Assembly (NCBI GenBank): GCA_963759805.1 | Contig: CAVXAT010000001.1 | Coordinates: 1-64,000 of the forward strand | Source: an uncultured bacterium | GTDB lineage: Bacteria; Babelota; Babeliae; Babelales; RVW-14 | Direction: 5' to 3' | Length of the DNA: 64,000 nucleotides | In this document: piece after piece, positions 26,791 to 64,000 of the stretch | How positions within the stretch are numbered: the first letter of the stretch is position 1 | Layout of the letters: each line of letters begins with the position of its first letter | Made by a program: the position numbers and the translations under genes | The notes under the pieces: generated by a model | Seen by the model: the letters and a program-made list of their open reading frames with translations, nothing else | What the model was told of the DNA's origin: nothing | Databases searched by the model: none

Positions 26791-28047
26791 TTAAAAAACC
26801 ATTCTATTTATGCTTACTGTAATAACTCTACCTGTAGTATAAATATCCTTTTCAAAATGTTTTGGTAATGGGGGGAATGGTGCAGTGTTTTTAAGATTTT
26901 TGATTATTGCAGAATCAACTTCTTTGCACCCTGATGATTCGAGTATTTCTGAATTTACCAGATTTCCCTTGGCATCAATTGAAAATCCAATTACTGCTTG
27001 ATAATCCCGTGCAGCAACAGGAAGATTGTAAAAGTTGCTGTTTTGCTTCCATGTTGCCTGACAGCACCAGTTTAATTTTGCCTCGTAAGATATGTATTTC
27101 ATCTCTTCAAAGCTTGGTGTTTTGTTTGGATCTCCATCCCTATCAATTAAATCTGTTCCATTTTCACCTTTGATTTTTTCAATATAACCCTTTGTCAGGG
27201 CAATTATATTTGGGGATTGTTTTGATTTTAGGCTTGATGCACCCCAGGCAAAGGCAGTGCTTTTTTCTTGCTCATTCGTGGCAGATGCCATTTTTTTATC
27301 TTTTTTTAAAATACTACTTAAAAGTCCTTCTCGCTCTTGTTCTTTGGTCTTTGGATGTTTTTGATATTCGGTGACTGATTCTTGCATCTGTCGAATTTTT
27401 TTAATACGATCTTCTACCGGACTAGTTTGATCTACTATTTTTTTCATTTCATCAACAATCGCTGTATCTGCAAGTCTTTTGAGCTCTTTGGCAGAGGGTT
27501 GCGCAACCTTGGTTGCAGTTGCTAACGGTTTGGGTTTTATCTCTTGTTTTATTTTAGCAGGCGCCTGTTTTGTTTGTGTTGCGTTGTTACGTTCAATTTT
27601 AGGCGCAATATTTTGTGGTTTAGTTTCTGTGGCATTTGATGTTTTAACTTTCATTACATCGCCAGTTTTGTTTGTTGGAATTTCAAGTTTCTTTGGCTTT
27701 ACATAATTATCATCAAAAAGCACCCACCCAAAATTGGATTTAGGTGCAACAAGTTTTGCCGGACGACTGTTCCCAGGTTTTATAAATTTAATGGGTTCTT
27801 TCTTTGTATGTGCAGCTTGCAAGATTTTCTGCAAGGCTTCATTCTTACGTTCTCGTTTTTGTTCAATTATACGCTTATCTTCAGGCGAAAGATTTGTTAT
27901 GGAATTAGATAGCGCTTTAATAAATGATGTAAAACGTTTTTTAAATCCAAATTCTAAAAAAAAGAATGATATTACCAAGTGCAGCAGCAATGAAATCAGA
28001 AGCAGCAGAAGCAGTATTTTAGTTTTTTTATATCTCTGTGGGGCCAT
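26791..28047 (-). CDS. TonB/TolA C-terminal domain protein
   Basis: TM with SLLLH and C-terminal FSIDAKG...ESSG..EVD....APFPPLP. Confidence 0.75.
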   Translation of the reverse strand: MAPQRYKKTKILLLLLLISLLLHLVISFFFLEFGFKKRFTSFIKALSNSITNLSPEDKRIIEQKRERKNEALQKILQAAHTKKEPIKFIKPGNSRPAKLVAPKSNFGWVLFDDNYVKPKKLEIPTNKTGDVMKVKTSNATETKPQNIAPKIERNNATQTKQAPAKIKQEIKPKPLATATKVAQPSAKELKRLADTAIVDEMKKIVDQTSPVEDRIKKIRQMQESVTEYQKHPKTKEQEREGLLSSILKKDKKMASATNEQEKSTAFAWGASSLKSKQSPNIIALTKGYIEKIKGENGTDLIDRDGDPNKTPSFEEMKYISYEAKLNWCCQATWKQNSNFYNLPVAARDYQAVIGFSIDAKGNLVNSEILESSGCKEVDSAIIKNLKNTAPFPPLPKHFEKDIYTTGRVITVSINRMVF

Positions 28048-46487: not shown

Positions 46488-47552
46488 CTATCTAATTTTT
46501 AGAGTAAGTAAAGCGGTCAAGCAAAGAATCATGGAGATTATCCAAAAACGTACTGTTACCTTGCTTTCCTTCCATCCCTTTAGTTCAAAATGATGGTGAA
46601 TGGGAGCCATAAGAAATATTCTTTTGCCTGTTAATTTAAAATATGCCACCTGTAAAATTACAGATACGGTCTCCATGACAAATATTCCGCCGCTGATCAG
46701 CAGTAAAAATTCTTGGCGAACAATCAATGCAAGAAATGCCAGCCCTGCTCCCATGGCCAGTGATCCTACGTCACCCATAAAAATCTGTGCAGGATAAGTG
46801 TTGTACCACAAAAATCCGACCAGTGCTCCAACAAGTGTACATGCCAGAACTGTCATCTCAGCACTGCCGGAATATGGAATGAAAAGATAAGTAGCAAATT
46901 TCACATGTCCGGCCAGATATGCAATAAATGCAAAGGTTGAAAAGTTAAAAATCAGCGGGCCGGCTGCAAGGCCATCAAGGCCATCCGTTAAATTGACCGC
47001 ATTGCTTGTGGCAACTATGATAAACGTTGCCCATGGAATTAATAGAATGCCAATCTCCGGCATAAAATTTTTAAAAAATGGAACGCAGATGCTTGTGTTG
47101 GGGGACAGCATTAAATACCATGCCAGTGATAGTAGTAAGCCAAATCCTATCTGAAGTCTAAATTTTAAAGAGGCAGAAATTCCCTTTTTGTATTTGAGCT
47201 TATAAACATCATCAAGAAATCCGATTAGACCATAACCCAGAACGCAGATCAGAAATAACCAAACATTAATTTTGGTTAAATTAGTCCAAAGCAATGCATT
47301 TATTAAAAACACTGATATAACAAAGAGGCCACCCATTGTCGGGGTGTCGTTTTTGGCCTGATGCGATTCGGGTGTCCACTCGCGAGCCTTGGAGCGGAAG
47401 TTTTTTTGGCAAAATCGTATGAACCTGTTTCCGAATGCAAATGAGATTAAAAGTGATGATAAAAGTGCGCATATTGAACGTACGCTGACGTAATGAAATA
47501 CGTTGAAAAAACTGTATTTTGTCTGCAATGCTTGGGCCATATGATATATCAT
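46488..47552 (-). CDS. mraY: Phospho-N-acetylmuramoyl-pentapeptide transferase
   Basis: TPTMGG, NAVNLTDGLDG, FMGDVGS and MAPIHHHFEL motifs. Confidence 0.97.
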   Translation of the reverse strand: MIYHMAQALQTKYSFFNVFHYVSVRSICALLSSLLISFAFGNRFIRFCQKNFRSKAREWTPESHQAKNDTPTMGGLFVISVFLINALLWTNLTKINVWLFLICVLGYGLIGFLDDVYKLKYKKGISASLKFRLQIGFGLLLSLAWYLMLSPNTSICVPFFKNFMPEIGILLIPWATFIIVATSNAVNLTDGLDGLAAGPLIFNFSTFAFIAYLAGHVKFATYLFIPYSGSAEMTVLACTLVGALVGFLWYNTYPAQIFMGDVGSLAMGAGLAFLALIVRQEFLLLISGGIFVMETVSVILQVAYFKLTGKRIFLMAPIHHHFELKGWKESKVTVRFWIISMILCLTALLTLKIR

Positions 47553-47756: not shown

Positions 47757-49679
47757 TTATGACTTTGCTTTAATAAGTCTACGTTCAACAGTGGCTGCAA
47801 GAGCATTAATAAGCTCCGGCTTTACCTCACACAGCTTATTAAAAATTTCTGGATTTCTAGAAACAAAATCAAAAATTTTGTTATCATCAGGCGTGCGATT
47901 GCCAGATGTGCCATTTCCAGCTGCAGCAGGTTCTGTTTGTTTTGGAGTAGCCGCACTGGATGCATCTTGTTCAGTCTCAGAAACCCCCGCTTTAGATTCG
48001 GTGAGTCCAGATTCGCCGATTACTTTGGAAGCCTTTTCTTGTAAGTCACCTGATAAATATGGCATTATTTTATAAATCAGTCCGGCGGCTAAAACAGGAC
48101 TTGTTCGAGCCAACAAGAAAAATGCAGCCTCTTTAAAATTTTCAAATTTTCGGTCGAACGCATACTCCAGAAAATCTACCATTGTCTGCGCGGTTCCGGC
48201 ACCCACGCCTTTGAATTTTCCGCTATCAATCCAATTTCCGGAAAAAATTGCATCTTTAATGCTCGCAAAAAATCCTTTTTCGCCTACTTTCAGATCTTTA
48301 TTGATAAGACCTCTTGCAGTTTCTAAAATTTTCCCCATGTCAACCAGAGCTGTAAGCGCAGGATCTTTTGCGTCAAGTTCTAGAACATATTTTATTATTA
48401 ACTGTTTTACTAACTCTATTTTTGAAGTCTCAACATTTTGCTTAAGCTTGCTTTTTGTCATAATTATTAAGTCTGCAAGCAGGCACTCAAGTTCAAAAAG
48501 TCTTCGATCTGCAACTTGCGGTTGAAGTTTATTAGCAAAAAAATCTTGTAAGAAGGTACAGTACAAGTTAAAAAATTCACAGAACTGCTTGTTTGAGTAA
48601 AGTAATTCATACTTCTTACTTTCAAGAAATAGTTTGTGTCGGATCAGGAGTTCAGCTTTTTCCTGATTATCTTTAAAATTTAAAGCAGGCTTATAAAATT
48701 TAACAACATCGTTTTTTATTTTTATTAATTTTGTGAGCAAGAGTTCCAAAATTAAGTTAGAGCTGCTATTTTTACCTGACGTTTGCATAGAAGCCCTATC
48801 TGTTGCAAATGCGTTAATTGCTTCTTCGATTTTGTTTAGAAAAGAATCAACGTCAAGTTGTCCCCCAAGTTTTTGTGCTTTATAAAAAGTTGAAATTATC
48901 TCGAAGTACTCTTCAGATAAGACTACTTTTTCAGCATAAAAATTCTGGCTCAAAATTTTACTTAAATAATAAGCTTGTGCTGATGATTGGGTAATCCCAC
49001 ACAAAACATATTGAATAAGAGAGCTTTGTAATCTTGAGGGTAAACTTTTGAAGATAATTGATCTAACTGATTTTTCTGGATATGCCATCGGATGGATGCG
49101 CCCGGTGTCGATCAGAGAACCAAAAATTTTAAGCTTTGCTTTCTGCATCTCGGCAAAATCAAGGGGTTCTTGCAATACTGAGACTTTTGAGTCCTCAGAC
49201 GAAACAGAGAGAGCTTCCAAATTCAAGCAAGCGAACTTAAACCAGTAGATTACTTCACTTAATCTTTGGGCGTACCACGGTGCGTAGTCTAATCTGCTGG
49301 TTGTTCCGAAATCTGCAAGACTTTTGATATTGGCAATCTTGTGGTCAACCAAAAGCTTAAGATTGCTTAACTCTGTCTGATTCAATGAAGTCGTTTTGCC
49401 TAAAAACAGATAAGTATCAAAAATTGAATTAAACTCTTCTGTGATGGCCTGAATTTTTGCTTTTTCACGTTCAGGTGATGTATCTTCAGGAGTTTTAGCA
49501 GGAGTCGTGGGCTCGAGAGTAAGTTGTTTATCTTTTGCATTTGTTGGCTTTGCACCCAAAATATCTGGATTATCTGCTAAAAGCTGTTCAAGTTCGGGCT
49601 CAACTTTTTGAGCTAATATTGGTGCTGAAGTAATAACCAACCCTAAACTTATCACAGATATATATTTTAATATTTTCAT
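47757..49679 (-). CDS. Secreted hypothetical protein
   Basis: 640-aa ORF with a signal peptide and a ggagg SD. Confidence 0.7.
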   Translation of the reverse strand: MKILKYISVISLGLVITSAPILAQKVEPELEQLLADNPDILGAKPTNAKDKQLTLEPTTPAKTPEDTSPEREKAKIQAITEEFNSIFDTYLFLGKTTSLNQTELSNLKLLVDHKIANIKSLADFGTTSRLDYAPWYAQRLSEVIYWFKFACLNLEALSVSSEDSKVSVLQEPLDFAEMQKAKLKIFGSLIDTGRIHPMAYPEKSVRSIIFKSLPSRLQSSLIQYVLCGITQSSAQAYYLSKILSQNFYAEKVVLSEEYFEIISTFYKAQKLGGQLDVDSFLNKIEEAINAFATDRASMQTSGKNSSSNLILELLLTKLIKIKNDVVKFYKPALNFKDNQEKAELLIRHKLFLESKKYELLYSNKQFCEFFNLYCTFLQDFFANKLQPQVADRRLFELECLLADLIIMTKSKLKQNVETSKIELVKQLIIKYVLELDAKDPALTALVDMGKILETARGLINKDLKVGEKGFFASIKDAIFSGNWIDSGKFKGVGAGTAQTMVDFLEYAFDRKFENFKEAAFFLLARTSPVLAAGLIYKIMPYLSGDLQEKASKVIGESGLTESKAGVSETEQDASSAATPKQTEPAAAGNGTSGNRTPDDNKIFDFVSRNPEIFNKLCEVKPELINALAATVERRLIKAKS

Positions 49680-49705: not shown

Positions 49706-52210
49706 TTAGCTTAAGCTTTGTTCAGTTATTCCAACACAACCCAAAAATGTTTTATAATGGCTTGGTATAGTTTTCCACAGGTACCTGTACAAATTTGCAT
49801 TATTTTTGAAGTGAGTAGAATGAGACAGAATTTGTGCCAGTGAGTTTTGTAAACGTTGCTTGACGTACATAAATTTGTCAGAATTTTCAGTTATATCTTT
49901 TACAAACTCGCCCAAAAATGACTCTCTGAGCATGATATTTGCCACAAAATCTTCATGCTTATCGCTATCAATTATATGTCCAACTTCGAGCTCTAATTTT
50001 GCGATCTGGTCAAATTTATCTTTAGAAATTTTATCTGAACGTACAGATGAAAACGCTTTTCTGTACGCTTCGAGTGTTTTGGTCTTGTCATTATCTTGAC
50101 GAATTTGTTTTGCTGTTGCCTCAAGTTGTTTTGCAAATGATTTTTGTAAACAGAGCGTTTCATCTAACAAAAGCTCTTGAATTGCTCTGTCTTCGATGTC
50201 TTTAATTAGATTAAGTTCGCTCAGCTTGGAATCAATTTGAAAATTCAATTCATTCGCTTTGTTATCAAGAAGGGTTGCTACAGTTTTACGTACTGCCAAC
50301 TTACCGTCAATCGATTTTTCTACAACAGGTTGAGCAGATGCCTGAGCGATGCGATCTTCAAGTGTTTTAATCGAGCTTAAAAGTTTATCGGATGGAACTC
50401 CGCCGGCTTGTTGCTTGACTTCCAGCATTTTATAAAGCTTAGCAAGATTTTGCTTATCTTTTTCAATCGTGTCACCATCTTGTTTTTTTGTTACACCTAA
50501 TTTTTCATTCACATTGACAGTAATGTCCTTTTGGACTGCCAAAATTTGAGCGTCAATTTTTGATAGATCAGATTTTAGTGTCTCAATTTTGGCTTGAACA
50601 TCGGGAGTATTTTTGCTGGCTTGTAAAATTAAAACCTTTTGCCATTTTGCCAGTTGCTCAGCTTTTTCAGCCTTTTGTTTTTCAAGCTTTTCAAGTTCAG
50701 ATTTGAGTTGTGTTATCTGTTCCTGGCGATTTTGTTCAAGTGATTTTTTAGATGTAGATTCGTCTTCGTCTGAAATAATTGTTTCGATTTCACTTTTAAT
50801 TTGGCTGAAGAACCGGCTTCCCTCTGGAGATCTAACAAATTTTTCTAATTCAATACGGCTCTTTTCTTTTGCGGCAAATTCAGTTTTATATTTGAATGAG
50901 GTTGCATCATTTTTTGTAAATAGGGCCTTTTTTGTCTGGAGATACTCTTTGAATGAGCTGCACAAAGTAATCAAAACACTTTTTAATGCATTGATTAATG
51001 AAATGTCTTGGGTTACATATGCTACCAAATATTCATCGTGTATCTGGTCATGTGCCAAAATGAATTTTGGCAATTTTGATTGCCCCGCATTTATCTGATT
51101 TATCAAATCTGCGGGCTTATCAGACGTACTCGAAAATAGGAACTCTTCATAGCCAACCATGGTTAGTGCAAATTTGTTGTTTGGAGCCGATATATCAGAT
51201 CTAAAATTTACAAAATCTTTCATATCAACTATTCCATAGTCATTAGGTTTTATAAAGCTATTAATTTGGGCTTGTAAACTTGTGGTTCCCAACAAGCTTT
51301 GTGATAAAGATGTGGCTTGAGAAGATAAATCTTGTGTAGATGCGTCTTGGGTTGAGCCATTTGTGCCAGTATAGTTTTTGAATTTCTCAAAAACTAATTT
51401 TGCCATTTTTTCATCTCTGAAGACAAAGCTTTTAACTTGAAGTGGTGCTTCTATTGTTTGGCTAGCGTCTGAGTTATCATTAATAAGTACAGACCACAAG
51501 TTATCAATAAATTCGATTAATTCAAACTTATTATCTTTCAAAATAGTTTTAAGAGATTCAGGGAGATAAGTGGATAAATGTTTGTTTTTATCAATGAATT
51601 GAAGGTCATCAACTTGGCTTAATCTGAACAGTAAGCAGAAGGTTTCTTCTACTACTCTGGACCATTGCCCATCGGTTCTGGCGGTATTTAGCAAAATTAA
51701 AAATTTAAAGGTAAAAAGCTGAACCGGATTTAACTTAAAATCCATCAACCATTTTAAGATTTCTATATCTTTTACGTTTTTGTAAAGTTCATTTTCGATT
51801 ACAACTCTTGCAAAATCGGCGAGAGAGGCTCTATCTGAATCTTCCGTGTTGTTGCCCCCAAATTTTACCGGATTAATTTGGGCTGCGACCGATTGAAGTG
51901 GTGTAAAAATATTTCCATGTCCGGCTTGAATATCAAATGAGACTTCTTGTCCTGCAATTACAAAAACAACTTTGTCGTTTGTGTAATAATTTAGATTTTT
52001 AACCGTTCTTAGAGATGAGTAAAATGCATCAATAAGATTACTAAAATCAAAACCTTGATTTTGTTGAGTCTTGACTCGTTGCGTCTTGACTTCTTGAGTC
52101 TCGACTTGTTGCGCACCAAGCTTTTGTGCAGTAACATTTTTTGTTGCAACAGATAACAGTGAAAACACAAAGAAAGAAAACACTAAAACTTTTCTGGATA
52201 CCTTGTTCAT
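49706..52210 (-). CDS. Secreted coiled-coil hypothetical protein
   Basis: 834-aa ORF with a signal peptide and a heptad-rich C-terminal half. Confidence 0.7.
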   Translation of the reverse strand: MNKVSRKVLVFSFFVFSLLSVATKNVTAQKLGAQQVETQEVKTQRVKTQQNQGFDFSNLIDAFYSSLRTVKNLNYYTNDKVVFVIAGQEVSFDIQAGHGNIFTPLQSVAAQINPVKFGGNNTEDSDRASLADFARVVIENELYKNVKDIEILKWLMDFKLNPVQLFTFKFLILLNTARTDGQWSRVVEETFCLLFRLSQVDDLQFIDKNKHLSTYLPESLKTILKDNKFELIEFIDNLWSVLINDNSDASQTIEAPLQVKSFVFRDEKMAKLVFEKFKNYTGTNGSTQDASTQDLSSQATSLSQSLLGTTSLQAQINSFIKPNDYGIVDMKDFVNFRSDISAPNNKFALTMVGYEEFLFSSTSDKPADLINQINAGQSKLPKFILAHDQIHDEYLVAYVTQDISLINALKSVLITLCSSFKEYLQTKKALFTKNDATSFKYKTEFAAKEKSRIELEKFVRSPEGSRFFSQIKSEIETIISDEDESTSKKSLEQNRQEQITQLKSELEKLEKQKAEKAEQLAKWQKVLILQASKNTPDVQAKIETLKSDLSKIDAQILAVQKDITVNVNEKLGVTKKQDGDTIEKDKQNLAKLYKMLEVKQQAGGVPSDKLLSSIKTLEDRIAQASAQPVVEKSIDGKLAVRKTVATLLDNKANELNFQIDSKLSELNLIKDIEDRAIQELLLDETLCLQKSFAKQLEATAKQIRQDNDKTKTLEAYRKAFSSVRSDKISKDKFDQIAKLELEVGHIIDSDKHEDFVANIMLRESFLGEFVKDITENSDKFMYVKQRLQNSLAQILSHSTHFKNNANLYRYLWKTIPSHYKTFLGCVGITEQSLS

Positions 52211-52603: not shown

Positions 52604-52680
52604 TACTTCGCCCTCGCCCTGTGCACCGTAGCTATAAAAAGCGAAGGTGCATACGCTCGTGGCTTCGTATGGCAGGCCAG
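52601..52680. repeat. Nested family A palindromes sharing the tRNA-Val CCA
   Basis: ccatacttcgcc..[gcaccgtagc..gcgaaggtgc]..ggcttcgtatggcaggcca. Confidence 0.75.
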
Positions 52681-52723: not shown

Positions 52724-52799
52724 TCCCCGATAGCTCAGTTGGTAGAGCACACGACTGTTAATCGTTAGGTCGCAGGTTCGAGTCCTGCTCGGGGAGCCA
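52724..52799 (+). tRNA. tRNA-Asn (GTT), island integration site
   Basis: tccccgatagctcagttggtagagc..ctGTTaa..ggttcgagtcctgctcggggagcca. Confidence 0.97.
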
Positions 52800-52939
52800 T
52801 CTCTTACCATCTACGGAATCTAGTATCAAATTAAACGGTTTTTTGGCTTCAAAGCGCACTTTTTTACCTTCTACCCTAAGGTTCTGAAGTACCAAGCATA
52901 AAAGTTGCCTTCTTTTCTCAACTTCAGAACTTATAAATA

Positions 52940-53941
52940 ACGCCAGTTCGATAATTAAAAAAGTTCTTTAAAAAAAGCCTTTCTCGTTTAAATTGAGAAA
53001 AATGAAACCCTCAAAAAAAAAGAGAAAGGCTAAACATGTTCTTAACAACTATTTTTTGCGAAATTGATGATTTTTGCAAGCAATATGAAAAATATGTTAA
53101 AGAAAAGAGAGTAAAGAATAACACGTTAAATGCTGCAGGACGCCCACGAGGCATGACTCTAAGCGATATTCTTACGATTTGCGTATATTTTCATTATTCT
53201 GGATATCACACATTCAAAAGATATTACAAAGACCATGTTTGCAAAGAATTGAAAACAGCCTTTGGGGCTTTGGTTAGCTACACTCGCTTTACTGAGTTAA
53301 TGCATGAGGCTGCAGAGCCATTGGCATTATTTGCTGCAAGTCGCAACAGTAAAAATATGCGCGGTATTGCCTTTATTGATTCCACAAAATTGGTTGTGTG
53401 CCACAATCTTCGAATTTACTCACACAAAGTTTTTAAGGGTATTGCTCAGCGCGGAAAATCATCAATGGGCTGGTTTTATGGGTTCAAACTCCATCTTGTG
53501 ATTAATCATTTCGGTGAAATTTTGTCATTTTGGATTACCCCAGGAAATACTGATGACCGTAACGAATCAGTTATTTCTAAAGTTACAAAAAATCTTTGGG
53601 GTTGGCTTTTTGGCGATCGTGGTTATATATCACAACCTCTTTTTGAAAAACTTTTTAGGCGTGGTCTCAAGCTTATAACAAAGCTTAAAAAGGGTATGAA
53701 AAACAAGCTCATGATCTTTTTTGAAAAACTTTTTCTAAAAAAACGAAACATCATTGAATCTGTTAACAATATCCTGAAAAATACCTTTAAAATCGAACAT
53801 ACTAGACATAGATGTGTTAAAAATTTTTTCACGAATGTTTTTGCTGCAATTTCAGCCTATTCTTTTCATCAACACAAACCTGCGATAGGTGTGGGGTTTT
53901 TTGCTGAAATTCCAAGCCTTAACTAATTATCGAACTGGCGT
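52940..53941 (+). mobile_element. IS982-family insertion sequence
   Basis: Perfect 18-bp IRs acgccagttcgataatta and a 6-bp duplication taaata. Confidence 0.92.
53036..53926 (+). CDS. IS982-family DDE transposase
   Basis: FCEIDDF, FIDST, GWFYGFKLHL, LFGDRGYIS and KRNIIESV motifs. Confidence 0.95.
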   Translation: MFLTTIFCEIDDFCKQYEKYVKEKRVKNNTLNAAGRPRGMTLSDILTICVYFHYSGYHTFKRYYKDHVCKELKTAFGALVSYTRFTELMHEAAEPLALFAASRNSKNMRGIAFIDSTKLVVCHNLRIYSHKVFKGIAQRGKSSMGWFYGFKLHLVINHFGEILSFWITPGNTDDRNESVISKVTKNLWGWLFGDRGYISQPLFEKLFRRGLKLITKLKKGMKNKLMIFFEKLFLKKRNIIESVNNILKNTFKIEHTRHRCVKNFFTNVFAAISAYSFHQHKPAIGVGFFAEIPSLN

Positions 53942-55459
53942 TAAATAAGTCATAAGCGCGGTTTGTTAGATCCAGTACATATTTTGACGTAATATAGTAG
54001 TTGTCGTCTGTCTCTTGCAACATCCCTAGTTGGGACTCCAAATCTGCTATTTCTTCACGGAACCCCTGGTCATATTTGTCATACTCGTTCTCAGTAATTC
54101 TCCCTTTGAGTTTATCCAAATATAGGTTGCTTCTCATTTTTGTTATGGTTTTATGCTTCTGAGTTAGCTCTTCGAAGCTTTTGGCCTGGAAATCTGCTTT
54201 GTCATTTTGTGCAGTGTTAATGGCGTTTATTGTTTGGAGTAATATCTCCTCAGGGATTTGCATCTGCTTAAAAATCTGTCCCAGCTGCTCAGTAATTGCC
54301 TCTTCTCGCAGCCATTGTGCGTCATGCTTGCCGTTATATTGCGTGCAGTGGTAATAAACCAAGCCCTTCTGTTTTTCAGGCGTCATTGACAGACCACAGT
54401 GCCCGCAACGAAATATTCCCCGATAAATGTATGGCTTGCCCGCGTACTTAAATCTTTTTTTATTAAAGCCTGATATGACTTGTTGGACCTGGTCAAAAAG
54501 CGTTTTGGTAATAATTGGGGCGTAGCGATGAGGATACAGTTTGTTTTTACAGACCATAAAACCGTAATAAAATGGATCGTTTAGAATTTTACCAAGAAAG
54601 CCTTTGCGCCATTTAATTCCGTACTCTTCATTCAATTTTTCGCATAGTAAGCCCATCGAAAATCCGCCTGTGGCATACAGCTCAAATGCCTTTTGAACAA
54701 TCTGCGAAGCATTCTCATCGACAACAATATCTTTTTTGCCATCCAGCTTAGTAATGTTCTTATAACCAAATGGAGCTCTACTTGGCCACTCGCCGCTGCG
54801 TAATTTTTGTTCTATGGCTCTTTTCACATTATCACTGATAGCATCTGAGTAATATTTTGATAGCCCAAGGCTCATGCTGAACTGAAATTTTTCAGCAGCA
54901 GAAATTTGGCTGTTTATTCTTTGCCCATCAGAGGCAAAGTGTAATTCGATTTCATCACATAAAGCCTTTTCGTAGAGTAAATGAACTCTTTTGTCAAAAA
55001 TGCTTCTGGATAAGCGATCTACTTTGTCAAAACAGACGAAAACTTTTTCATTTTGCTTGATAACAAAATCTATGATGCTATCAAATTCATCTCTCTGGGT
55101 TTTATAAGCGCTTTCATCAAAACTAAATTCTTTAACTATTTCAAAGTTTTTGTTCTGGCAATATCTTTTTAACCGCTCGATTTGGGCTGGAAGCGAGTTG
55201 CCAGCCTCTCTTTGCTCTTCTGTGCTAACGCGCGCAATGATTATGGCTTTCATTTGTTTTTTGCTCCTTTAAAGATTTTGAAAATTAGTTTCTAAATTAT
55301 TTAATATTTATGGTTTTTAAGCAACATTTTTTGTGGATAGGGCCTCAAGTGTGAAATAAAACACGTAAAAACGGTGCCCCTTGACAAAGTATATTTTTTA
55401 TAATAAATTTCAAATAGATATATTTAATTTATATTTGATTCAAAAAATAGGAGGTTATT

Positions 55460-56884
55460 ATGAAAAGAATAGTTCATATTTTTTTGATTTTGCCATTCTT
55501 GTTAGTGTTGTTACAGTTTAATCTTTGTGCAATGGAAGTTCCAAAAGAGGAACAAAAATATGAACACACAAGTGGGCATATTAATTCAACGTTAGATGCA
55601 TGCATTGATTCTTTTGTAAAAAAAGGAATATTTAATGGCATTGTCATGGTTATTAAAGATGACAACATCTTGATTCATAAGGGTTATGGATTTTTGGATT
55701 GTAACTCAAAAAAATTGATCAGTCTTGATACGAAATTTCGGCTGGGATCTGTTTCAAAACAGTTTACAGCGCTGGCGATAATTCAGCTTTTTGAACAAAA
55801 TAAGTTGAATATACAAGATGATATCAAATTGTATATACCTGAATTTCCAGTAGATGGAGTTAAAATTCATAACTTATTAACCCATACAAGTGGTTTGCCA
55901 TTATATTGGAAAATTTCCGGTGAGGACAGAAGTCGAGTTTATAGTAGAGATGAGGCTGTAAAAATTATTTGTAATGGGGTTGGTGAGATTGGATTATTTT
56001 TTAACCCAGGTACTCAGTTTAGGTATTCAGCATCAAATTATGTTTTGTTAGCCGCTATTGTTGAGAGAATTTCAGGAATTTCGTTTGAAAATTACATTAA
56101 ACAAAATATTTTTGATCGAATAAAAACTACTGGAATTGGATGTTGTTGCAAGTGTTGCAAGCCTGTTGATGGTTTGGCTACTGGGCACATATTAAAGGAT
56201 GAAAATCTATTGACTGTTATTCCTCTTGATGCCCTTGCTGTCCCTGGTACTGGAAGTTTATATGCAACTGCAGGAGATCTTTACAAATGGGCTAACGCGT
56301 TAAAAACACCAGGCATTTTGCTTGGCCCTAAAGGGCTTTCCCTGATGTTTGAGCCGTATGTTAAAACTACCCCAGATTTTATAAAAGATAGTGAATATGC
56401 TTATGGTTGGTTCATAACACTTATCCATGGGCATAAGTGTATAGGTCATTTTGGTAAAGTTATGGGCTTTCGGTCTGGCATTTTTAGATATGTTGATGAT
56501 AATACTGTTATAATTATTTTGAGCAATTTTGAACATGCACAGGTAGAACCTCTCAATACATCTTTGGCTGCGATTATATTTGGTTTTAAACCAGAATTAC
56601 CTCAAGTCATCAAACCAGTCGAAATAGATAGCTCAATGTTTTCTTTGTATGAAGGATTGTATGGTTGCAATGGGGAACAACTGTCTATATTCATGGATAG
56701 ATTAACTGGGGATATATATACTCAAATTATTGGACACTCCAGGCAAAAATTACTTTCTCAATCGAGTTCTGCATTTGTCCTTGAGCGATATCCGATAAAG
56801 TTTGATTTTATGAAAAATCATGAAGGTTGTTACTATATAAATATTGAAAAAAATGGCAAAATAAGTACCTGGACTAAAATTTAG
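55460..56884 (+). CDS. Serine hydrolase, beta-lactamase/AmpC-like family, secreted
   Basis: GSVSKQF (SxxK), LLTHTSGL, FRYS and GHFG motifs plus a signal peptide. Confidence 0.88.
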   Translation: MKRIVHIFLILPFLLVLLQFNLCAMEVPKEEQKYEHTSGHINSTLDACIDSFVKKGIFNGIVMVIKDDNILIHKGYGFLDCNSKKLISLDTKFRLGSVSKQFTALAIIQLFEQNKLNIQDDIKLYIPEFPVDGVKIHNLLTHTSGLPLYWKISGEDRSRVYSRDEAVKIICNGVGEIGLFFNPGTQFRYSASNYVLLAAIVERISGISFENYIKQNIFDRIKTTGIGCCCKCCKPVDGLATGHILKDENLLTVIPLDALAVPGTGSLYATAGDLYKWANALKTPGILLGPKGLSLMFEPYVKTTPDFIKDSEYAYGWFITLIHGHKCIGHFGKVMGFRSGIFRYVDDNTVIIILSNFEHAQVEPLNTSLAAIIFGFKPELPQVIKPVEIDSSMFSLYEGLYGCNGEQLSIFMDRLTGDIYTQIIGHSRQKLLSQSSSAFVLERYPIKFDFMKNHEGCYYINIEKNGKISTWTKI

Positions 56885-56991
56885 TTAGTAAATTTTGGTT
56901 ACCAATTTGATGTAGTTTGCAGTGGCATAAGTTGTCTGAATTTTGTATTTTTGATTTAATTATTTTTCATAAGTTTAAGAAAGTTTGACAT

Positions 56992-58056
56992 ATGATTTTT
57001 TTTGATCCACAAGTAATTCAGCATATTGAACGTCGTGTTGATGAGTACGTTCAGCCATTGGTAGCACAAAAATTATTTTCAGGAGTCTTATTTTTTGCTA
57101 ATAAGAACAGCATATTATTACGCAAGGGATACGGGAAGGCTAATTATACTAATGATTTGTCAACAATGCCTGGTACCAAATATCGATTATGTTCTGTTTC
57201 TAAGCAATTCATTGCTTTAGTGATTTTGCAATTAAATAAGCATGAAAAATTACGGCTTCAAGATCCTGTGGCGCATTATTTGCCTGAATATGTTAAGGAC
57301 AATCGAATTACTATTGAACATCTCTTAATCCATACCTCGGGAATTCAAAACTATACTAAACTTGATGCCTTTAGAACAAAGATTATGTCAGGGCCACTTC
57401 GCTTACCAGAGTTAGTTGATTTATTTAAAAATAAACCATTGGACTTTGAGCCGGGCAAAAAATTTGCCTATGGAAGTTCTGGATATGTTTTGTTGGCGGC
57501 ACTAATTGAAAAAATATCTAACCAATCATATGCTGATTACCTAAAATCAAATATTCTTAATCATTTGCACATGAATGATAGTGGAAGAAACTTTCAAGAT
57601 GTCTTGAACAAAGATAATGCTGTAGGCTACCAGATGAGTGCTGGAGTCCTCGAAGCCACATCTAAGTGGGCATCAGAAACGGCTATAGGTGTTGGTGATT
57701 TTTATTCTACTGTTGATGATTTATATAAATGGAATAAAGCCATATTTAGTGAAAAAAGTTTCGAAGCTGATTTAGTCAGAACAATGTCTACACCCTACAT
57801 ACAAGCGTCTAATTTTTTTGATAATCCAAAATATGGTTATGGGCTTTTTATATCCTCAATTCTTGGTCGAAAATGCATTGGGCATTTTGGACGGTTAGGT
57901 GGTTTTCATACGCTTTTTTTACATTTTGTTCAAGAAGATGCTTGTTTAATTATGTTGAGTAATTTTGAACACAGCCCCTTGGAAGAAATGGCAACACAGC
58001 TTTTGCCTATTTTACTAAAGCCGGTTAATGGAATGATACGCACAAAAGACGTATAA
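56992..58056 (+). CDS. Serine hydrolase, beta-lactamase/AmpC-like family
   Basis: CSVSKQF, LLIHTSGI, FEPG.KFAY and GHFG motifs. Paralog of the upstream gene. Confidence 0.88.
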   Translation: MIFFDPQVIQHIERRVDEYVQPLVAQKLFSGVLFFANKNSILLRKGYGKANYTNDLSTMPGTKYRLCSVSKQFIALVILQLNKHEKLRLQDPVAHYLPEYVKDNRITIEHLLIHTSGIQNYTKLDAFRTKIMSGPLRLPELVDLFKNKPLDFEPGKKFAYGSSGYVLLAALIEKISNQSYADYLKSNILNHLHMNDSGRNFQDVLNKDNAVGYQMSAGVLEATSKWASETAIGVGDFYSTVDDLYKWNKAIFSEKSFEADLVRTMSTPYIQASNFFDNPKYGYGLFISSILGRKCIGHFGRLGGFHTLFLHFVQEDACLIMLSNFEHSPLEEMATQLLPILLKPVNGMIRTKDV

Positions 58057-58462
58057 CTATTGAATTGAATCCATGGTTAATAACTTTATTTATCTTGATG
58101 ACTGCGAATTCAAAACGAAGTTTAAGTAAAAATTACATCTTTTAAATAAACTTTTTCTTGCCTTTAATTCCAGATTGCCTATATTTAAACGTTGAATGTA
58201 GTAAATTGAAGTAATGATTCAACAGGAGAGTACAAATGAAAAAATTTAATCTTATCGGTTGCCGGCATGGGCTAGGGTGCTTACCTAGCGGCTGGCTCAC
58301 TTACAATCGAAGGCAATTGCATTTCTGCGACAGCAGAATATCGCAATCACTCAGTAAGTAACCGTCACACAATTCTAATTTAGGTTCAGAAAATAATTTT
58401 TAATTTACATGCTGACGTTAGTCAGCATCAGGTGATACAAAAAGTATTGCCCAAGAGGTTTA

Positions 58463-58792
58463 ATGGTTTTCAAGAAAATCCCGCCAAGAGCGGTCGTGGT
58501 TTTGCCTTTTGAAGAACATCATCGTGTTGTAAAAGTCGTTGAGTTGCTGGCAGCAGTTGCTCGACGTGTTGACGCACGAAGCGTCAAGGTTCGATGTGTC
58601 AGTGCCGGCAAACGAAAATCTTCAGAAGAAAAAGGCACAGGGTTAAAACAAAAACAAGAAAATAGGGTTCGTACATTTTACGGACCTTGTTTTTTTGAGC
58701 AAACTCTTTATCCTGAAACGGAAAATTTAGCATTTATTTGCATATTTAAGAACACGTTGCCGCAGCCCTCGATACGATTTATTTTGCAGTAA
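58463..58792 (+). CDS. Small hypothetical protein upstream of the Rep-like gene
   Basis: 109-aa ORF with a gagg SD. Its 3' end runs into a family B repeat. Confidence 0.35.
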   Translation: MVFKKIPPRAVVVLPFEEHHRVVKVVELLAAVARRVDARSVKVRCVSAGKRKSSEEKGTGLKQKQENRVRTFYGPCFFEQTLYPETENLAFICIFKNTLPQPSIRFILQ

Positions 58793-58821
58793 ACTGCTGC
58801 ATAAATCACTCGGGACGAGCG
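58764..58821. repeat. Family B palindrome
   Basis: ccctcgatacgattt...aaatcactcgggacgagcg matches 41284-41339. Confidence 0.75.
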
Positions 58822-58858
58822 GCGGAGATTTACGGCCTTTGCATGAATCGAGATTTCC

Positions 58859-60016
58859 ATGATAGACACCATAGTTTTAACATTCACTAGCAACATGTAT
58901 CGCATAACAGACCCTGACAAATTTAGGCCATCTGCTCGTTGGATAGAAAATCCGTCGTTGATTAATTGCGATATTCGGTCAAAGCAAAATACAACAAAAA
59001 AAGAGCTGAGTCGTGGAATTTACAAGCCATCTCTTACGTTGTCCAATTGCATCGGCTCTAGCGGGCTGCGCGATATTATGCTCAAAGTTGAATTGTCATT
59101 GCCCAAGCTATTGTTTGGGAATAATTTTCAAGAATTGCAGTATAAAGATTTTTCGCTAATCACAAAAAAGTTGGTGGGAAAATTAGAGGCAATGGGGGTT
59201 GAGATTGACGAAGATGTACTTGCTCATGCGAATGTTTCTGCCATTCATTATGCAAAAAATATTATTCTTAAAGATGGCTCAACGCCATTTCATTACATTC
59301 AAAAGATTAAAGAATCAAATATTTCTGCAGTTCTTGATACCAATCAGACGAATTACCGCAACGACGGGCTTAGTTATAAGTGGCATTGCAATTCATATGA
59401 AGTTGTTTTCTACGATAAAATCAAAGAGCTTGAAAAGACAAAACAGAGCAGCAAAAGGACAATCGAAAAGGATGGGGCTTTGCAAATCAAGCTTTTGGAT
59501 CGGTTAACTCGCAGAAAAAAGTTGGAGATCTTGCGCATGGAGGTGAGGCTTAATAAACGGCAAAAAATCAGACAGCTGTTTGCCAAACTTGGTATTAAAT
59601 CAGATTTAACATTTCATAGCTTATTTAAGCCTGCCACGGCTAAAAAAGTTTTATTGCATTATCTTGACGAGCTTGAAAGCAAACGGCCAGCCTTACTTGA
59701 TTATAAAGACAAAGACGATGGAGCTTTGCTGGCGGCTTTGTGTTTTAATAATCCGGAACTTAGGCCCAAACAAATTTTACAGATGTTTGGTTTGAAAAAG
59801 GCACTTGAATTTATAACGCCACGAGAGTTAAGTGTTTTATTTTCACGCATTCATTCTAGGCGGTTTCAGAGGTTTATGACAGAGGTCAAGAAAGTAAAAT
59901 TGCCAAACGAGAACAATTCGTTTGGCATTATACGAGAACAGGTTGTGAAATTTAAGCCGTGCAAGATTCGTGAAGCGTCGCAATCATTTCGCAATCGTGA
60001 CGTAATCTTGTCGTAA
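58859..60016 (+). CDS. Putative rolling-circle replication initiator (gene II/X, Rep_trans-like)
   Basis: MIDT, SLPKLLFGNN, FYDK..E and LRMEVR motifs appear in the expected order. Confidence 0.55.
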   Translation: MIDTIVLTFTSNMYRITDPDKFRPSARWIENPSLINCDIRSKQNTTKKELSRGIYKPSLTLSNCIGSSGLRDIMLKVELSLPKLLFGNNFQELQYKDFSLITKKLVGKLEAMGVEIDEDVLAHANVSAIHYAKNIILKDGSTPFHYIQKIKESNISAVLDTNQTNYRNDGLSYKWHCNSYEVVFYDKIKELEKTKQSSKRTIEKDGALQIKLLDRLTRRKKLEILRMEVRLNKRQKIRQLFAKLGIKSDLTFHSLFKPATAKKVLLHYLDELESKRPALLDYKDKDDGALLAALCFNNPELRPKQILQMFGLKKALEFITPRELSVLFSRIHSRRFQRFMTEVKKVKLPNENNSFGIIREQVVKFKPCKIREASQSFRNRDVILS

Positions 60017-60048
60017 TCCTATCAATACGCTTTAACCCTTTGTAATAA

Positions 60049-60402
60049 TTATTTCTTATTAAAGACCAGATGCGGTTCTTGTCCCAATAGTGCAAAAAGA
60101 CGTGCGATGCTGGCAATTGTCAAATTGGCAGCGCCATTTTTTATTTTGGCAATATGTGCGGGACTAACATCCAATCGTTTGACGAGCTCATTAAAACCAA
60201 TATTTTTTTCTTTCATGTAATTATTCATGGCATTTGTAATATCATTTTGTAACGACTTAAGAGCCCTTGCTTCCAACATTGCTTGTTGTTCAATTTCGGT
60301 GATTTCTGATTTAGTTAATCTTTTTTCCATTAACTTTTGAAAGCTTTTCGTTGAAAATTTCTTCGTTGTTACTATCTTCTTCTCTTTTCCTGCCTTATTC
60401 AT
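60049..60402 (-). CDS. XRE/HTH antitoxin (HigA-like)
   Basis: ELVKRLDVSPAHIAKIKNGAANLTIASIARL, directly downstream of the toxin. Confidence 0.8.
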   Translation of the reverse strand: MNKAGKEKKIVTTKKFSTKSFQKLMEKRLTKSEITEIEQQAMLEARALKSLQNDITNAMNNYMKEKNIGFNELVKRLDVSPAHIAKIKNGAANLTIASIARLFALLGQEPHLVFNKK

Positions 60403-60436
60403 GGTAACTACTCCTTATCATTGTTCTGCGTTATTT

Positions 60437-60775
60437 TTACTGAGTTTGTGTTAACCTTGTACGTGCAATTTTAATATCATTTTGTTGGTTACTTTTATCA
60501 CCTGCATGCAGCAAAATTATGATCTTATTCTTATAAAAGCAGTAATAAATTCTAAAACCATAGTTTCTTTCGCGTAACTCAAATAGGCCTTTGCCTAGTG
60601 TTCTGCTATGTGGAAGTTTTAAATCATTACCACAAACTTCAAGCAGTTTTAGTTCTTTGGATACGGCTTTGAATTGTTCCCGCGTTAATTTTAGTAACCA
60701 ACGCTCAACCGAGCGTTTGCCTGAGTTATCAACCCAATAGTCTATAGTCCATTTTATCATAATTTTACAACTCAC
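60437..60775 (-). CDS. RelE/HigB (Gp49-like) toxin
   Basis: LPHSRTLGKGLFELR...RIYY...ILLHAGDK...DIKIAR. Confidence 0.88.
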   Translation of the reverse strand: MSCKIMIKWTIDYWVDNSGKRSVERWLLKLTREQFKAVSKELKLLEVCGNDLKLPHSRTLGKGLFELRERNYGFRIYYCFYKNKIIILLHAGDKSNQQNDIKIARTRLTQTQ

Positions 60776-60958
60776 TTTCTCATGAAAATATAAATTGAAC
60801 TTTTAATAAATAATCTTCAAAAACTACTATATTTTAGTATAGTATATTTTAATATACTGGCAAGATCTTTTTGTAATAAAAAAGTTTCTTTTTACTTTGC
60901 CCAAATATGATACAATTGCTGCATCATAAAAATACACTTAAATCAGAAAGATATTGTA

Positions 60959-62404
60959 ATGAAAGCCATTCTTATTGCTCGTGTGAGTACTGAAGAGCAG
61001 CGAGATGCAGGCAACTCATTGCCCGCGCAAATTGCACGTCTTGAAAGATATTGCCAGAATAAAAACTTTGATATTTTGCAGATCTATAGTTTTGATGAAA
61101 GTGCATACAAAAACGATCGCGTTGAATTTGATCGAATTATTGATCTTATTTTAAATCAGCAAGAAAAGATTGTAGTATGTTGCGACAAAGTCGATCGACT
61201 CTCACGCAATGTATTTGATAAACGGGTTTCGATACTTTATGAAAAAGCATTGTTTGACCAGATAGAATTACATTTTATATCTGATGGACAGATCATCAAT
61301 AGTAATATATCTGCGGTAGAAAAATTTCAATTCAGCATCAGTTTGGGATTGGCCAAATATTATTCAGATGCGATCAGTGATAATGTAAAACGAGCTATGG
61401 AACAGAAATTACGAAAAGGCGAGTGGCCTTCAAAAGCTCCATTTGGTTATAAAAACATCACCAAGCCGGATGGGAAAAAAGATATTGTTGTTGATGAATA
61501 TAATTCACGCATTGTTCAAAAGACATTTGAATTGTACGCAACTGGTGGCTTCTCAATGAGTTTGTTATGTGAAAAATTAAACAAAGAGCATGGTCTTAAG
61601 TGGCGAAAAGGTTTTCTTGATAAGATTTTAAATGAGTCATTTTATTACGGTGTTATGGTATGCAAATGTAGGATGTACCCTCATCGATACCCTCCAATAA
61701 TAACCCAATCACTTTTTGATCAAGTACAACAGATTATAGATGGATTTAAAAAGAAGCGATTCAAATATGCAGGCAAACAACCATATGCTTACCGCGGGTT
61801 AATACGTTGTGCTCATTGTGGATTGTCAGTAACGCCTGAAAAGCAGAAGGGCTTGGTCTATTATCATTGCACTCAGTACAATGGTAAGCATGGGGCCAAA
61901 TGGATAAGAGAGGAAGCGATCACTGAGCAACTTGGCGCAGTATTTAGAAATTTACAGATGCCTGCAGAAATTGTACACCAAATTACCCAGACTCTGAACG
62001 AAGTTCATGAAAATAAAATTGAATTTCATAATAACGAGTTCGACAAGCTCGCTAGGGAGCAAAAAAATCTGACTACCATGCTTGATAATTTATATCTTGA
62101 TAGACTTCAAAGAAAAATTTCTGAGCGTGACTATGACAAGTTTTATCAATCAATGCATGATCGAATAACTGATATTGCGATACGCCTTGACCAGTTACAG
62201 GAAGCGGAAGATGTTTATCATTTTACTGCAACGTTTGTACTTGAGGTCATAAAACGTGCGTATGAGTTATTTGTAAGTGCTGAAATTGAAGAAAAACGCC
62301 AACTAATTAAATTGATGCTATTGAATTTGAGAATAGAGGGCGAAAATCTTGTGTGGGACGTACAAAAACCGTTTGATTTGTTTTTGAATGCCACCGAAAA
62401 TTAA
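60959..62404 (+). CDS. Large serine recombinase (int2), inverted paralog of int1
   Basis: ARVSTEEQ, DRLSR, APFGY and CAHCG/YYHC motifs. Confidence 0.93.
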   Translation: MKAILIARVSTEEQRDAGNSLPAQIARLERYCQNKNFDILQIYSFDESAYKNDRVEFDRIIDLILNQQEKIVVCCDKVDRLSRNVFDKRVSILYEKALFDQIELHFISDGQIINSNISAVEKFQFSISLGLAKYYSDAISDNVKRAMEQKLRKGEWPSKAPFGYKNITKPDGKKDIVVDEYNSRIVQKTFELYATGGFSMSLLCEKLNKEHGLKWRKGFLDKILNESFYYGVMVCKCRMYPHRYPPIITQSLFDQVQQIIDGFKKKRFKYAGKQPYAYRGLIRCAHCGLSVTPEKQKGLVYYHCTQYNGKHGAKWIREEAITEQLGAVFRNLQMPAEIVHQITQTLNEVHENKIEFHNNEFDKLAREQKNLTTMLDNLYLDRLQRKISERDYDKFYQSMHDRITDIAIRLDQLQEAEDVYHFTATFVLEVIKRAYELFVSAEIEEKRQLIKLMLLNLRIEGENLVWDVQKPFDLFLNATEN

Positions 62405-62471
62405 ATATCGTTAATGGGTTCTTTAACCAGTTTTCAATAGTCCTTAGATTTATTGGGAGTGCTACATTTAT

Positions 62472-63098
62472 TTATAGCAAATTGTCTTCCGTTGATTTGT
62501 AACTATATTTTCTCTTTATAGTCCATCCGGATGTTTTTTTATTGTTTCTTTGCCAGTGGGATTCATAAACATTTGATTGGCCTATTCCAATTAAAACAGT
62601 AATAAAATCATCTAAGTCAATCCAATAAAGTCCATTGTTTTTTTCCCAGCCGCTTGTTACAAAAAATCCGTCTGTATAATCTTTATCTTCTTGAGATAAA
62701 CAAAAAACATATGAATGTATGATTAAATTGCATAAAATGGGTAACTCGATTTTGTTATTTTTACCAGACTCTTCAATGTTATAAAATCTGTCGATTTGAT
62801 GCCAATTTAGCAAGTCAGGTTGCTTTGTGTTATCTTTTATGGAAAATTTCTTATTTTTTATATACCAGTATTCAGTTTTAATATCGGAGCCAATTTTTTC
62901 AGCTTCTATAAGTTTACGAATAGCATAGGCAGATATCATTATTTTTTTCTCAAATAATATTGCTTGTTTTGAAGAAGGTCTTTTTTTTGACCATCGCTGT
63001 AAAATATCAGCATCTTTGATTAACTCATATTTCCAATCTGAAGATTCCCAGATCATATATTCCTTGTAATTTTTTGATGGCTTTAATCTTGTAAACAA
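62472..63098 (-). CDS. Hypothetical protein (island cargo)
   Basis: 208-aa ORF with AYAIRKLIE and LCNLIIHS segments. No family recognised. Confidence 0.65.
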   Translation of the reverse strand: MFTRLKPSKNYKEYMIWESSDWKYELIKDADILQRWSKKRPSSKQAILFEKKIMISAYAIRKLIEAEKIGSDIKTEYWYIKNKKFSIKDNTKQPDLLNWHQIDRFYNIEESGKNNKIELPILCNLIIHSYVFCLSQEDKDYTDGFFVTSGWEKNNGLYWIDLDDFITVLIGIGQSNVYESHWQRNNKKTSGWTIKRKYSYKSTEDNLL

Positions 63099-63109
63099 TT
63101 TTAAACAGT

Positions 63110-64000
63110 CTAACGTAATTTAAGGTCAATTTCAAAGCTTGAATAAACCGTTTTTATGTTTTGTAGCCTAAAATCAAACCCGATTTTGCGATTTATAAAT
63201 GAGTCTCGCATGTGGAGCCATTCTGGTTGATCACTCATTTTTGCGAAGATAGAGAAGGGCTCTTTAAGCTCCAGGTCGAGCTTGTCACCATTTAATTTAA
63301 AGTTCGAAACCATAAAATTCAAAAGTTGCTGTTTTTCATTCATTTTCGAACCCAGAAAAAGCTCTTTAGATTGCTGAGCCAAGCTCAAGACTGTTTGGGC
63401 GGTGATTAGGCATGATTCATCCGCATTAACATGGGCCTTCATTTCTAGAGTGATATTTCGCTGTCGTGTTTTATATTCATATAGCTTCAGACGGTATGTT
63501 TCAGCATCAATTCTTCCATCTAGATACATGTCTATCAATTTTGAGATTCTATCTTGGATATGGTCCAATTCTTTGCGTAAGGCTTCTTGAGAATGCTGGT
63601 AAAAGTCTTGTTCAGTTGCGTAAGAATGTTTTAGATGCGCAATTATGTCGCTAATCTGCTTGTCTGATAGCTTAATTTTATCGAAATACTTTAACACTTC
63701 AGCCAGGATTGCTTCCTCTTTAACCCATACCTTGGTGCAAACTCGTTTTGCATTGCTGCAGCAGTAATAAACATACTTCCCTTTCTTGATATCCCCTGTA
63801 ATTGTACAGCCACAATTTGCACATTTAATTAGCCCACGGAAAAGAAGTTCTTTTCCAGCATAATGAGCGGGTGCTTTATGGTGTCCGGCAATTATATCCT
63901 GCACTTTATCGAAAAGCTCCTCAGATATAATTGGCGTATATTTGTGAGGATACAGCTCACCATTCATACGCATAACCCCTGAATAAAAAGGGTTTTTGAG
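63110..64000 (-). CDS. Large serine recombinase (int3), 3' part; the 5' end is beyond the window
   Basis: The frame is open to the edge (LKNPFYSGVMR). PIISEELFDKVQ, CANCG, YYCC and EPF...WL motifs. Confidence 0.9.
   Translation of the reverse strand, partial: LKNPFYSGVMRMNGELYPHKYTPIISEELFDKVQDIIAGHHKAPAHYAGKELLFRGLIKCANCGCTITGDIKKGKYVYYCCSNAKRVCTKVWVKEEAILAEVLKYFDKIKLSDKQISDIIAHLKHSYATEQDFYQHSQEALRKELDHIQDRISKLIDMYLDGRIDAETYRLKLYEYKTRQRNITLEMKAHVNADESCLITAQTVLSLAQQSKELFLGSKMNEKQQLLNFMVSNFKLNGDKLDLELKEPFSIFAKMSDQPEWLHMRDSFINRKIGFDFRLQNIKTVYSSFEIDLKLR

Follow-up and report, generated by a model that had tools for sequence, protein, structure and literature searches.

Large serine integrases stacked at a tRNA-Asn gene of an uncultured babelial bacterium and a conserved C-terminal tail that integration would sever

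The stretch of DNA analyzed here (the window) comprises the first 64,000 nucleotides of contig CAVXAT010000001.1 (C1) from the 1.5-Mb genome of an uncultured bacterium of the Babelales (GenBank assembly GCA_963759805.1); coordinates above 64000 refer to C1. Three elements, 27 kb in total, are stacked at a tRNA-Asn(gtt) gene (52724-52799, +), which is the integration target and whose last bases would have been supplied by the element upon integration. Element 1 spans 52793-63214, element 2 63214-76290 and element 3, a relic without integrase that contains insertion sequence (IS) pieces of the IS3 type, 76290-79686. The 8-mer GGAGCCAT is present at 52793 and 63214 in the identical W-L reading frame of two integrase genes, int1 and int3, as an earlier reading of the sequence (the original prediction) had noticed. 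The first copy (52793-52800, +) is the attL core of element 1, with the crossover dinucleotide placed at 52794-52795 (alternatively 52795-52796), and the second (63214-63221, +) is the internal junction between the right end of element 1 and the 3' end of int3, with the crossover probably at 63215-63216. The caution that an 8-bp match alone could simply reflect conserved W-L codons was justified, as the genome holds 28 copies and the 8-mer by itself is not significant. We judge the junctions to be real because further core copies, which the original prediction had proposed to seek beyond 64000, occur at C1 76290 and C1 79686, each with a tail of the integrase family (on the integrase strand, with a W-L start and the motif PLRTFNW), and because a tRNA or tmRNA gene converges on the integrase 3' end in 100 of the 152 family loci in which this end was reached.

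The gene int1 lies on the reverse strand in two pieces, a 5' piece at 53942-55253 (start at 55253) encoding a large serine integrase of the class A clade, and a 3' piece of 57 codons at 52758-52933, which ends in the W and 12 residues from the antisense tRNA. The two pieces are separated by an IS982-family element (52940-53941, +), which is flanked by a 6-bp target duplication and has its transposase gene at 53036-53926 (NF033520 above cut-off). With the IS and one duplication copy discounted, int1 is in frame and reads ...DGKRWLPEQDSNLRPND, with the stop at 52758-52760. The frame is kept only when 0 or 6 extra bases are discounted, and duplications of 5, 7 or 8 bp break it. Moreover, a contig of a public run joins 52933 to 53942, skipping 1008 (1002 + 6) bases, and thus represents an IS-free allele. 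Frame analysis and public contig together confirm the earlier claim that int1 minus IS982 reads into the antisense strand of tRNA-Asn. Since int1 is interrupted, excision alone would not restore a whole enzyme and element 1 would need an integrase in trans. Three IS982 copies in the genome are 99.8-100% identical (window 52940-53941, C1 near 85720-86720 and contig C2 near 123180-124190) and have 6-8-bp target duplications, which we read as recent spread.

The second integrase gene, int3 (C1 64678-63110, -; body within the window 63214-64000), encodes 522 aa, belongs to the class B clade and is 34% identical to int1; its end reads ...DQPEWLHMRDSF...LKLR. Its sister (71.5%) lies directly at a tRNA-Asn gene and has the tRNA-derived end ...DQPEWLPGQDSNLRPND, which is the state that the original prediction had foreseen for int3 after excision. 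The proposed tail swap thus gains support from this sister and from the tail of int3, which is of the int1 clade, whereas an int1 broken by an IS would not be made whole by it. Int1, int3 and a third integrase, int2, combine Resolvase, Recombinase and zinc-ribbon domains, the last with a coiled coil, all above the Pfam cut-offs. An AlphaFold2 model of P0060, a natural class A core with a class A tail, matches the SPbeta, LI and Bxb1 integrases, and the solved chains align to their own ends over P0060 residues 1-479/483, before W488. Judging from sequence and model, the family belongs to the large serine integrases. Because the solved chains end before W488, the tail-less chromosomal enzyme would lack no canonical domain and the tail would be an addition.

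The family comprises at least 2203 proteins, most of which terminate at a tRNA in the records, and the loci from scans with int2 (79 loci) and int3 (80 loci) are mostly from Babeliales/Dependentiae, Patescibacteria and Chlamydiae. Eleven kinds of target are used (Asn, Asp, Gln, Glu, Tyr, Arg, Ser, His, Leu, Met and tmRNA). In all this the conserved W codon complements the CCA of the tRNA, and the orientation is convergent in the 100 loci mentioned above and same-strand in 0/152; hence the W codon overlaps tRNA ends across homologs, as the original prediction had proposed to check. Six chlamydial relatives of the int3 clade (L153-L155, L157, L158 and L161) target the tmRNA 3' end in the same W-codon register.

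The crossover was located by comparing attL and attR. There were 50 paired junctions, 33 of them tRNA-adjacent, and the 30 with a well-placed tail start were used. Counted from the W, attL and attR are identical at base 4 in 30/30, at base 5 in 30/30 and at base 6 in 29/30 junctions, and identity falls off to 28/30 at base 3, 19-22/30 at bases 1-2 and 20/30 at base 7. This peak places the crossover in the acceptor stem, in the codon after the W, and points to a short dinucleotide-centered core, as in large serine integrases; the recombination core shared in the family amounts to 5-10 bp. At 11-13 bp from the center, GA(C/T) occurs in both attP arms as well as in the tRNA arm, and a T.GAc motif 9-13 bp out is common to both attP arms. 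The first 6-8 codons of the tail overlap the attP arm and the GA(C/T) motif. The match of 63201-63220 to the tRNA 3' end was correctly counted as 15/20 in the original prediction, but it is mostly the 7-bp core plus the GA(C/T) motif common to all arms, not a duplicated piece of tRNA, and the D-S pair seen in both protein ends is this same motif. On the host side, no arm consensus was found across the junctions, which would explain the reuse of an occupied site.

At present int3 terminates in a class A tail of 35 codons after the W plus a stop (63110-63213, -), which is likely the right attP arm of element 1. We distinguish two classes of tail, A and B, with two profiles whose seeds (11 and 8 tails) all come from other genomes. 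The tail at 63110-63220 scores 37.7 bits for class A versus 0.4 for class B, the tail at 76290 25.1 for class B versus 1.3 for class A, and that at 79686 31.9 for B versus 1.9 for A. According to these scores, int3 wears a tail of a foreign class and a tail of its own class stands at the far end of element 2. Class follows clade when 145 intact cores are paired with the nearest upstream (distal) tail, where many cases without a tail lie on short contigs. For the 59 cores at least 50% identical to int1, the nearest tail is of class A in 30 and of class B in none, with no tail found in 29; for the 29 cores at least 45% identical to int3, it is of class B in 7 (6 distinct) and of class A in none, with no tail found in 22. 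The remaining 57 cores have 7 A tails, 5 B tails and 45 without a tail. In four loci, class A tails are fused to cores merely 22-30% alike to int1. A genome of the same family (G014) shows the mirror order, namely tRNA-Asn, an int3-like gene, an int1-like gene that wears tail B, then tail A and flank, and in G008 a three-element stack has tail B behind the int3-like element. The foreign-class tail on int3 is likely a by-product of stacking and likely unmatched to int3.

The orphan tail is under protein-level selection. Tail hits were chosen by DNA profile with 9 seeds excluded; of the 47 hits obtained, 5 with indels were dropped and 42 analyzed. The integrase frame is open in 40/42 and the other two frames in 5/42 and 0/42. 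The ratio of non-synonymous to synonymous change (pN/pS) is 0.28 in the integrase frame versus 1.1-1.9, and it is likewise 0.28 in codons 12-31, which lie beyond the attP arm (an earlier selection by protein profile gave 0.33 and is superseded by the DNA-profile test). About 25 internal residues are conserved in an amphipathic pattern, and the tail of P0060 is modeled as a helix-loop-helix at a pLDDT (predicted local distance difference test) of ~71-84, with the last 8 residues disordered. No convincing Pfam match was found for the tail, nor any match to solved chains or to any part of the core. A separately translated peptide was considered and rejected, as ATG/GTG/TTG stands at codon 7 in just 14/40 orphan tails and there is no constant start.

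The outer boundary of the array lies beyond the window. A repeat right of 79693 adjoins tRNA-Lys and tRNA-Glu elsewhere in the genome, directly after their CCA ends, and also directly follows the empty tRNA-Asn of another genome (G017). Its position marks the displaced tRNA end at 79693 and makes C1 79686 the outer attR. The original prediction of a 10.4-kb element with its own attL and attR in front of an older one is therefore supported, except that 63214 is an internal junction and that element 1 is a composite. An integrase scrap at 79835-79940, beyond element 3, is older than that element. The GGAGCCA at 62886 is not a junction (it is out of frame and inside a 208-aa open reading frame, ORF), and that at 46603 is unrelated to the array. 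A GC-rich hairpin repeat lies 3' of several tRNAs (window 52604-52680; C1 79693-79775 and 209035-209118; C8 129058-129139; C19 8658-9110), and on C19 a 69-bp tandem array in front of tRNA-Val is made up of part of this repeat. Just upstream of a tRNA-Val gene, the window has two ORFs with signal-like starts and no Pfam match (47757-49679, 640 aa; 49706-52210, 834 aa).

Element 2 contains, besides int3, a 63-aa MerR/HTH_17 gene, a primase, a D5-like helicase and hydrolases. The 63-aa gene is excisionase-like and lies upstream of int3, just past the window edge. The earlier statement that no gene for a recombination directionality factor (RDF) is visible thus holds for element 1, while element 2 has a candidate. 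Among class A elements, RDF candidates of the HTH_17 type occur in 16/30 and SpoVG-like ones in 19/30, with 0 in element 1. Among the small genes of class A elements, these two types are also the most frequent (e.g., L017:1841-2137, L024:7042-7233 and relatives). The excisionase-like gene, primase and helicase form a satellite-like module (C1 64695-67913) that is also present in G014 and G008. Elsewhere in the genome, three cassettes without an integrase lie behind a tRNA-Gln(ctg) gene (C5 25144-30421), each consisting of one cargo gene and a class B tail (at 27559, 28759 and 30421), an integron-like pile of relics. Three further integrases of the family are found at C9 11162-12565, C10 48707-50803 and C3 18889-21230, one at tRNA-Arg(cct) and two frameshifted with class A tails nearby.

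Parts of this anatomy have precedents. In the tandem tmRNA islands of Dehalococcoides, dsiB, the gene of a serine recombinase, overlaps attL in every case, and it was suggested, untested there, that DsiB works only from the circle or with the 3' fragment of a neighbor (McMurdie 2011; PMC3146451). The belief that the arrangement was uncharacterized for large serine recombinases thus does not stand: the idea was already in print for DsiB, minus the conserved tail (PMC3146451). Like the DsiB islands, the array has integrase genes that cross the att site in tandem (int1, int3 and the further junctions). However, those islands use a tmRNA target, a T-loop crossover and a 20-bp repeat, whereas here the target is tRNA-Asn, the crossover lies in the acceptor stem and the repeat is 8 bp; of their module of six genes, which includes the small recombinase DsiA as well as ParB and Mom, no counterpart was found among the scanned ORFs of elements 1-3. 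By the published description of DsiB, the array is therefore not a DsiB island in target, crossover or module. Moreover, DsiB C-termini are called divergent with no conserved tail shown, in contrast to clade-typed tails under selection, many tRNA targets and a 5-10-bp repeat here. The integrase of myxophage Mx8 has attP inside int, and integration gives it a new 3' end and altered activity (PMC6070905); SSV-type integrases are named as an att-in-gene type (PMC4383910). Both share an attP inside the integrase gene and a tRNA target with our family but are tyrosine recombinases, whereas here the gene encodes a serine integrase with a core that is already complete ahead of the crossover. In the integration-dependent immunity of mycobacteriophage BPs, too, a gene spanning attP loses its C-terminal part upon integration, but the split gene there is the repressor and its tag a proven degron (PMC4557955). 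The canonical SPbeta, LI/A118, Bxb1 and phiC31 integrases resemble the family in domain order, fold and short crossover core, but their chains end where the core ends here, and they are without attP-in-gene, tRNA target or extra tail. Serine integrases were not known to target tRNA genes in 2015 (Islander; PMC4383910) and prefer coding genes according to a 2026 survey. The layout is not mentioned in the accessible portions of PMC12884075, PMC13626063 and PMC9580842, and our literature search, with most subscription papers outside its reach, did not turn up any work on a serine integrase tail that is conserved and state-dependent. New relative to this literature are the clade-typed chimeras, the reciprocal arrays and the selection on the tail.

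Very probably, attP lies inside the int 3' end, such that integration would swap a conserved tail of 30-40 residues for antisense tRNA and the severed tail would stay at attR, at the far end of the element. A later element would insert likewise, and its tail would land on the resident and likely older integrase, as that of int1 would have done on int3. Each enzyme would then carry its own tail only when the element is an excised circle. We are highly confident that the crossover lies in the acceptor stem one codon after the W, that relic element 3, element 2 and element 1 arrived in this order, and that excision would reverse the exchange; the anatomy works like the att-in-gene systems of Mx8 and DsiB. 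The tail may pack on the C-terminal domain as a docking switch, a role we prefer because its conserved stretch is both long and amphipathic, because the core ends in the domain on which RDFs act, at the zinc-ribbon/coiled-coil hinge (PMC11722253), and because of the Mx8 precedent. The tailed enzyme made from the circle may be biased toward attP x attB and resistant to an RDF, and the tail-less chromosomal enzyme may excise with an element-borne factor, for which HTH_17/MerR or SpoVG-like genes are candidates; this part is tentative and would more probably fail than hold. The full reading, in which elements stack, the tail is cut off and parked on a neighbor, packs on the C-terminal domain and favors integration in the circle form, has a chance that we place only slightly below even. 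It is doubtful that the tail goes as far as a built-in directionality module, in which the circle form is confined to integration, excision falls to the chromosomal form and newcomers' tails lock or retune residents under first-in-last-out control.

Several observations weigh against the full reading. The case for int1, and not int2, as owner of the tail consists of strand, Asn-type core and nearest tails. Element 1 is without an RDF candidate and its own int1 is broken. Of the paired loci, 6/30 with class A and 3/6 distinct ones with class B had contributed seeds to the profiles, and the linkage of clade and tail is also explained by co-inheritance and DNA-arm recognition. The symmetry of attP, which is highest at the step from base 5 to base 6, is weak (0.35 versus 0.18-0.31 at other centers). 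Integrases become excisive when an RDF is fused to their C-terminus (PMC11722253), the opposite of what the circle needs, and the uncharged tail ends fit a degron. Finally, neither a circle junction nor a free form was found in viral contigs or public reads: the two best "phage" records proved to be linear scaffolds that stop at tRNAs, a metagenome scan, whose matches were mostly to antisense tRNA, was set aside, and the circle joint was not seen in three public read runs, of which none is from the source strain and in which 0.06 of the words are present, so that this result is uninformative.

With the same anatomy, the tail could instead be a degradation tag that makes the circle-made enzyme short-lived, excision one-way and re-integration limited, leaves the chromosomal form stable and, as a foreign tail on int3, would damp the integrase of the older element. 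This explanation is unlikely, though it is the best placed of the alternatives. In its favor, a charged last residue is rare, being found in 2/50 class A and 1/25 class B tails versus 29-33% of background frames, and 9/50 class A tails end in Ala versus 5-7% in the background; these counts are overstated as the tails are related, and the class A tail within the window itself terminates in LKLR. A ClpX-type degron end needs fewer residues than the ~25 conserved internal amphipathic positions of the tail. On the other side, the model suggests a core complete without the tail, the tRNA-derived integrase ends (2 to 194 residues) are unconstrained, and the BPs repressor offers a precedent with attP in the gene and an ssrA-like tag on the viral form (PMC4557955).

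Alternatively, the tail might be required for any activity, such that integration leaves the enzyme crippled, a functional one comes only from the circle or from a gene that a neighbor's tail has completed, and stacking reactivates older integrases. This is what McMurdie suggested for DsiB (PMC3146451), and it suits the prevalence of proteins ending at a tRNA in the records and the fact that excision was not seen. We nevertheless consider it improbable: all domains of the solved integrases precede the W, tails often sit on cores 22-30% alike to their own clade, which is a poor basis for structural completion, and excision has to begin from the tail-less form.

A different question is which integrase the tail at 63110-63213 came from. 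Element 1 (10.4 kb) is, by sequence homology, a composite, as 58148-62397 derives from another element. From its left side, int1 is followed by two cargo genes for serine hydrolases of beta-lactamase fold (55460-58056, +), far under all named-family cut-offs. Then comes an inverted relic of a second element (58148-62397, +) with rep, a toxin-antitoxin pair and int2 and without both att ends, homologous to the tRNA-Asp element of G041 (rep 83%, int 75%). Its rep-like gene (58859-60016, +) is common to most class A elements and has no Pfam or NCBIfam match; the sole lead for the protein is Phage_CRI-like (25-30% of Atlas cluster members), and a 109-aa ORF preceding rep gives no Atlas lead. A RelE/Gp49-like toxin and helix-turn-helix antitoxin pair (60049-60775, -) precedes int2 (60959-62404, +), which is 66% identical to int1 and ends ~5 codons before the family W, its tail absent; a profile scan found no class A or B tail on the int2 strand within the window. 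The 208-aa ORF mentioned above (62472-63098, -), without a family match, separates this relic from the tail. Since the tail has an Asn-type core and is nearest to the tails of Asn-type elements, int1 appears to be the likelier owner. We give little chance to the alternative that the tail belongs to the element of int2 and was separated from it by inversion of 58148-62397. Class A elements do usually run tail, rep, cargo and int on a single strand, rep and int2 agree with each other, and int2 breaks near its own att position. However, the sister element of int2 targets tRNA-Asp and has a different tail, while the window tail shares 58-64/93 bases with the nearest Asn-type tails; the class A tail of int3 is foreign under both readings.

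Least probable by far, and already largely refuted, is a tail without any protein role, that is, conserved DNA (an attP arm or accessory site) read through, with a local match given by coincidence of 8 bp of W-L codons: the first codons do overlap the arm and its motif and the 8-mer is common, but hits picked by DNA have a single open frame and stay constrained beyond the arm.

Serine integrases are core tools of genome engineering, and most of them pose the question of what sets direction where no RDF is known. The family described here reaches eleven kinds of tRNA and tmRNA target with a near-identical layout and no conserved host-side arm. Its C-termini in databases are often antisense tRNA or the tail of a neighbor, which calls for caution in annotation, and these elements escape finders of tRNA islands that are restricted to tyrosine integrases. 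A tail that is under selection and present in only one recombination state would offer a direct and cheap handle on self-encoded control of direction or stability.

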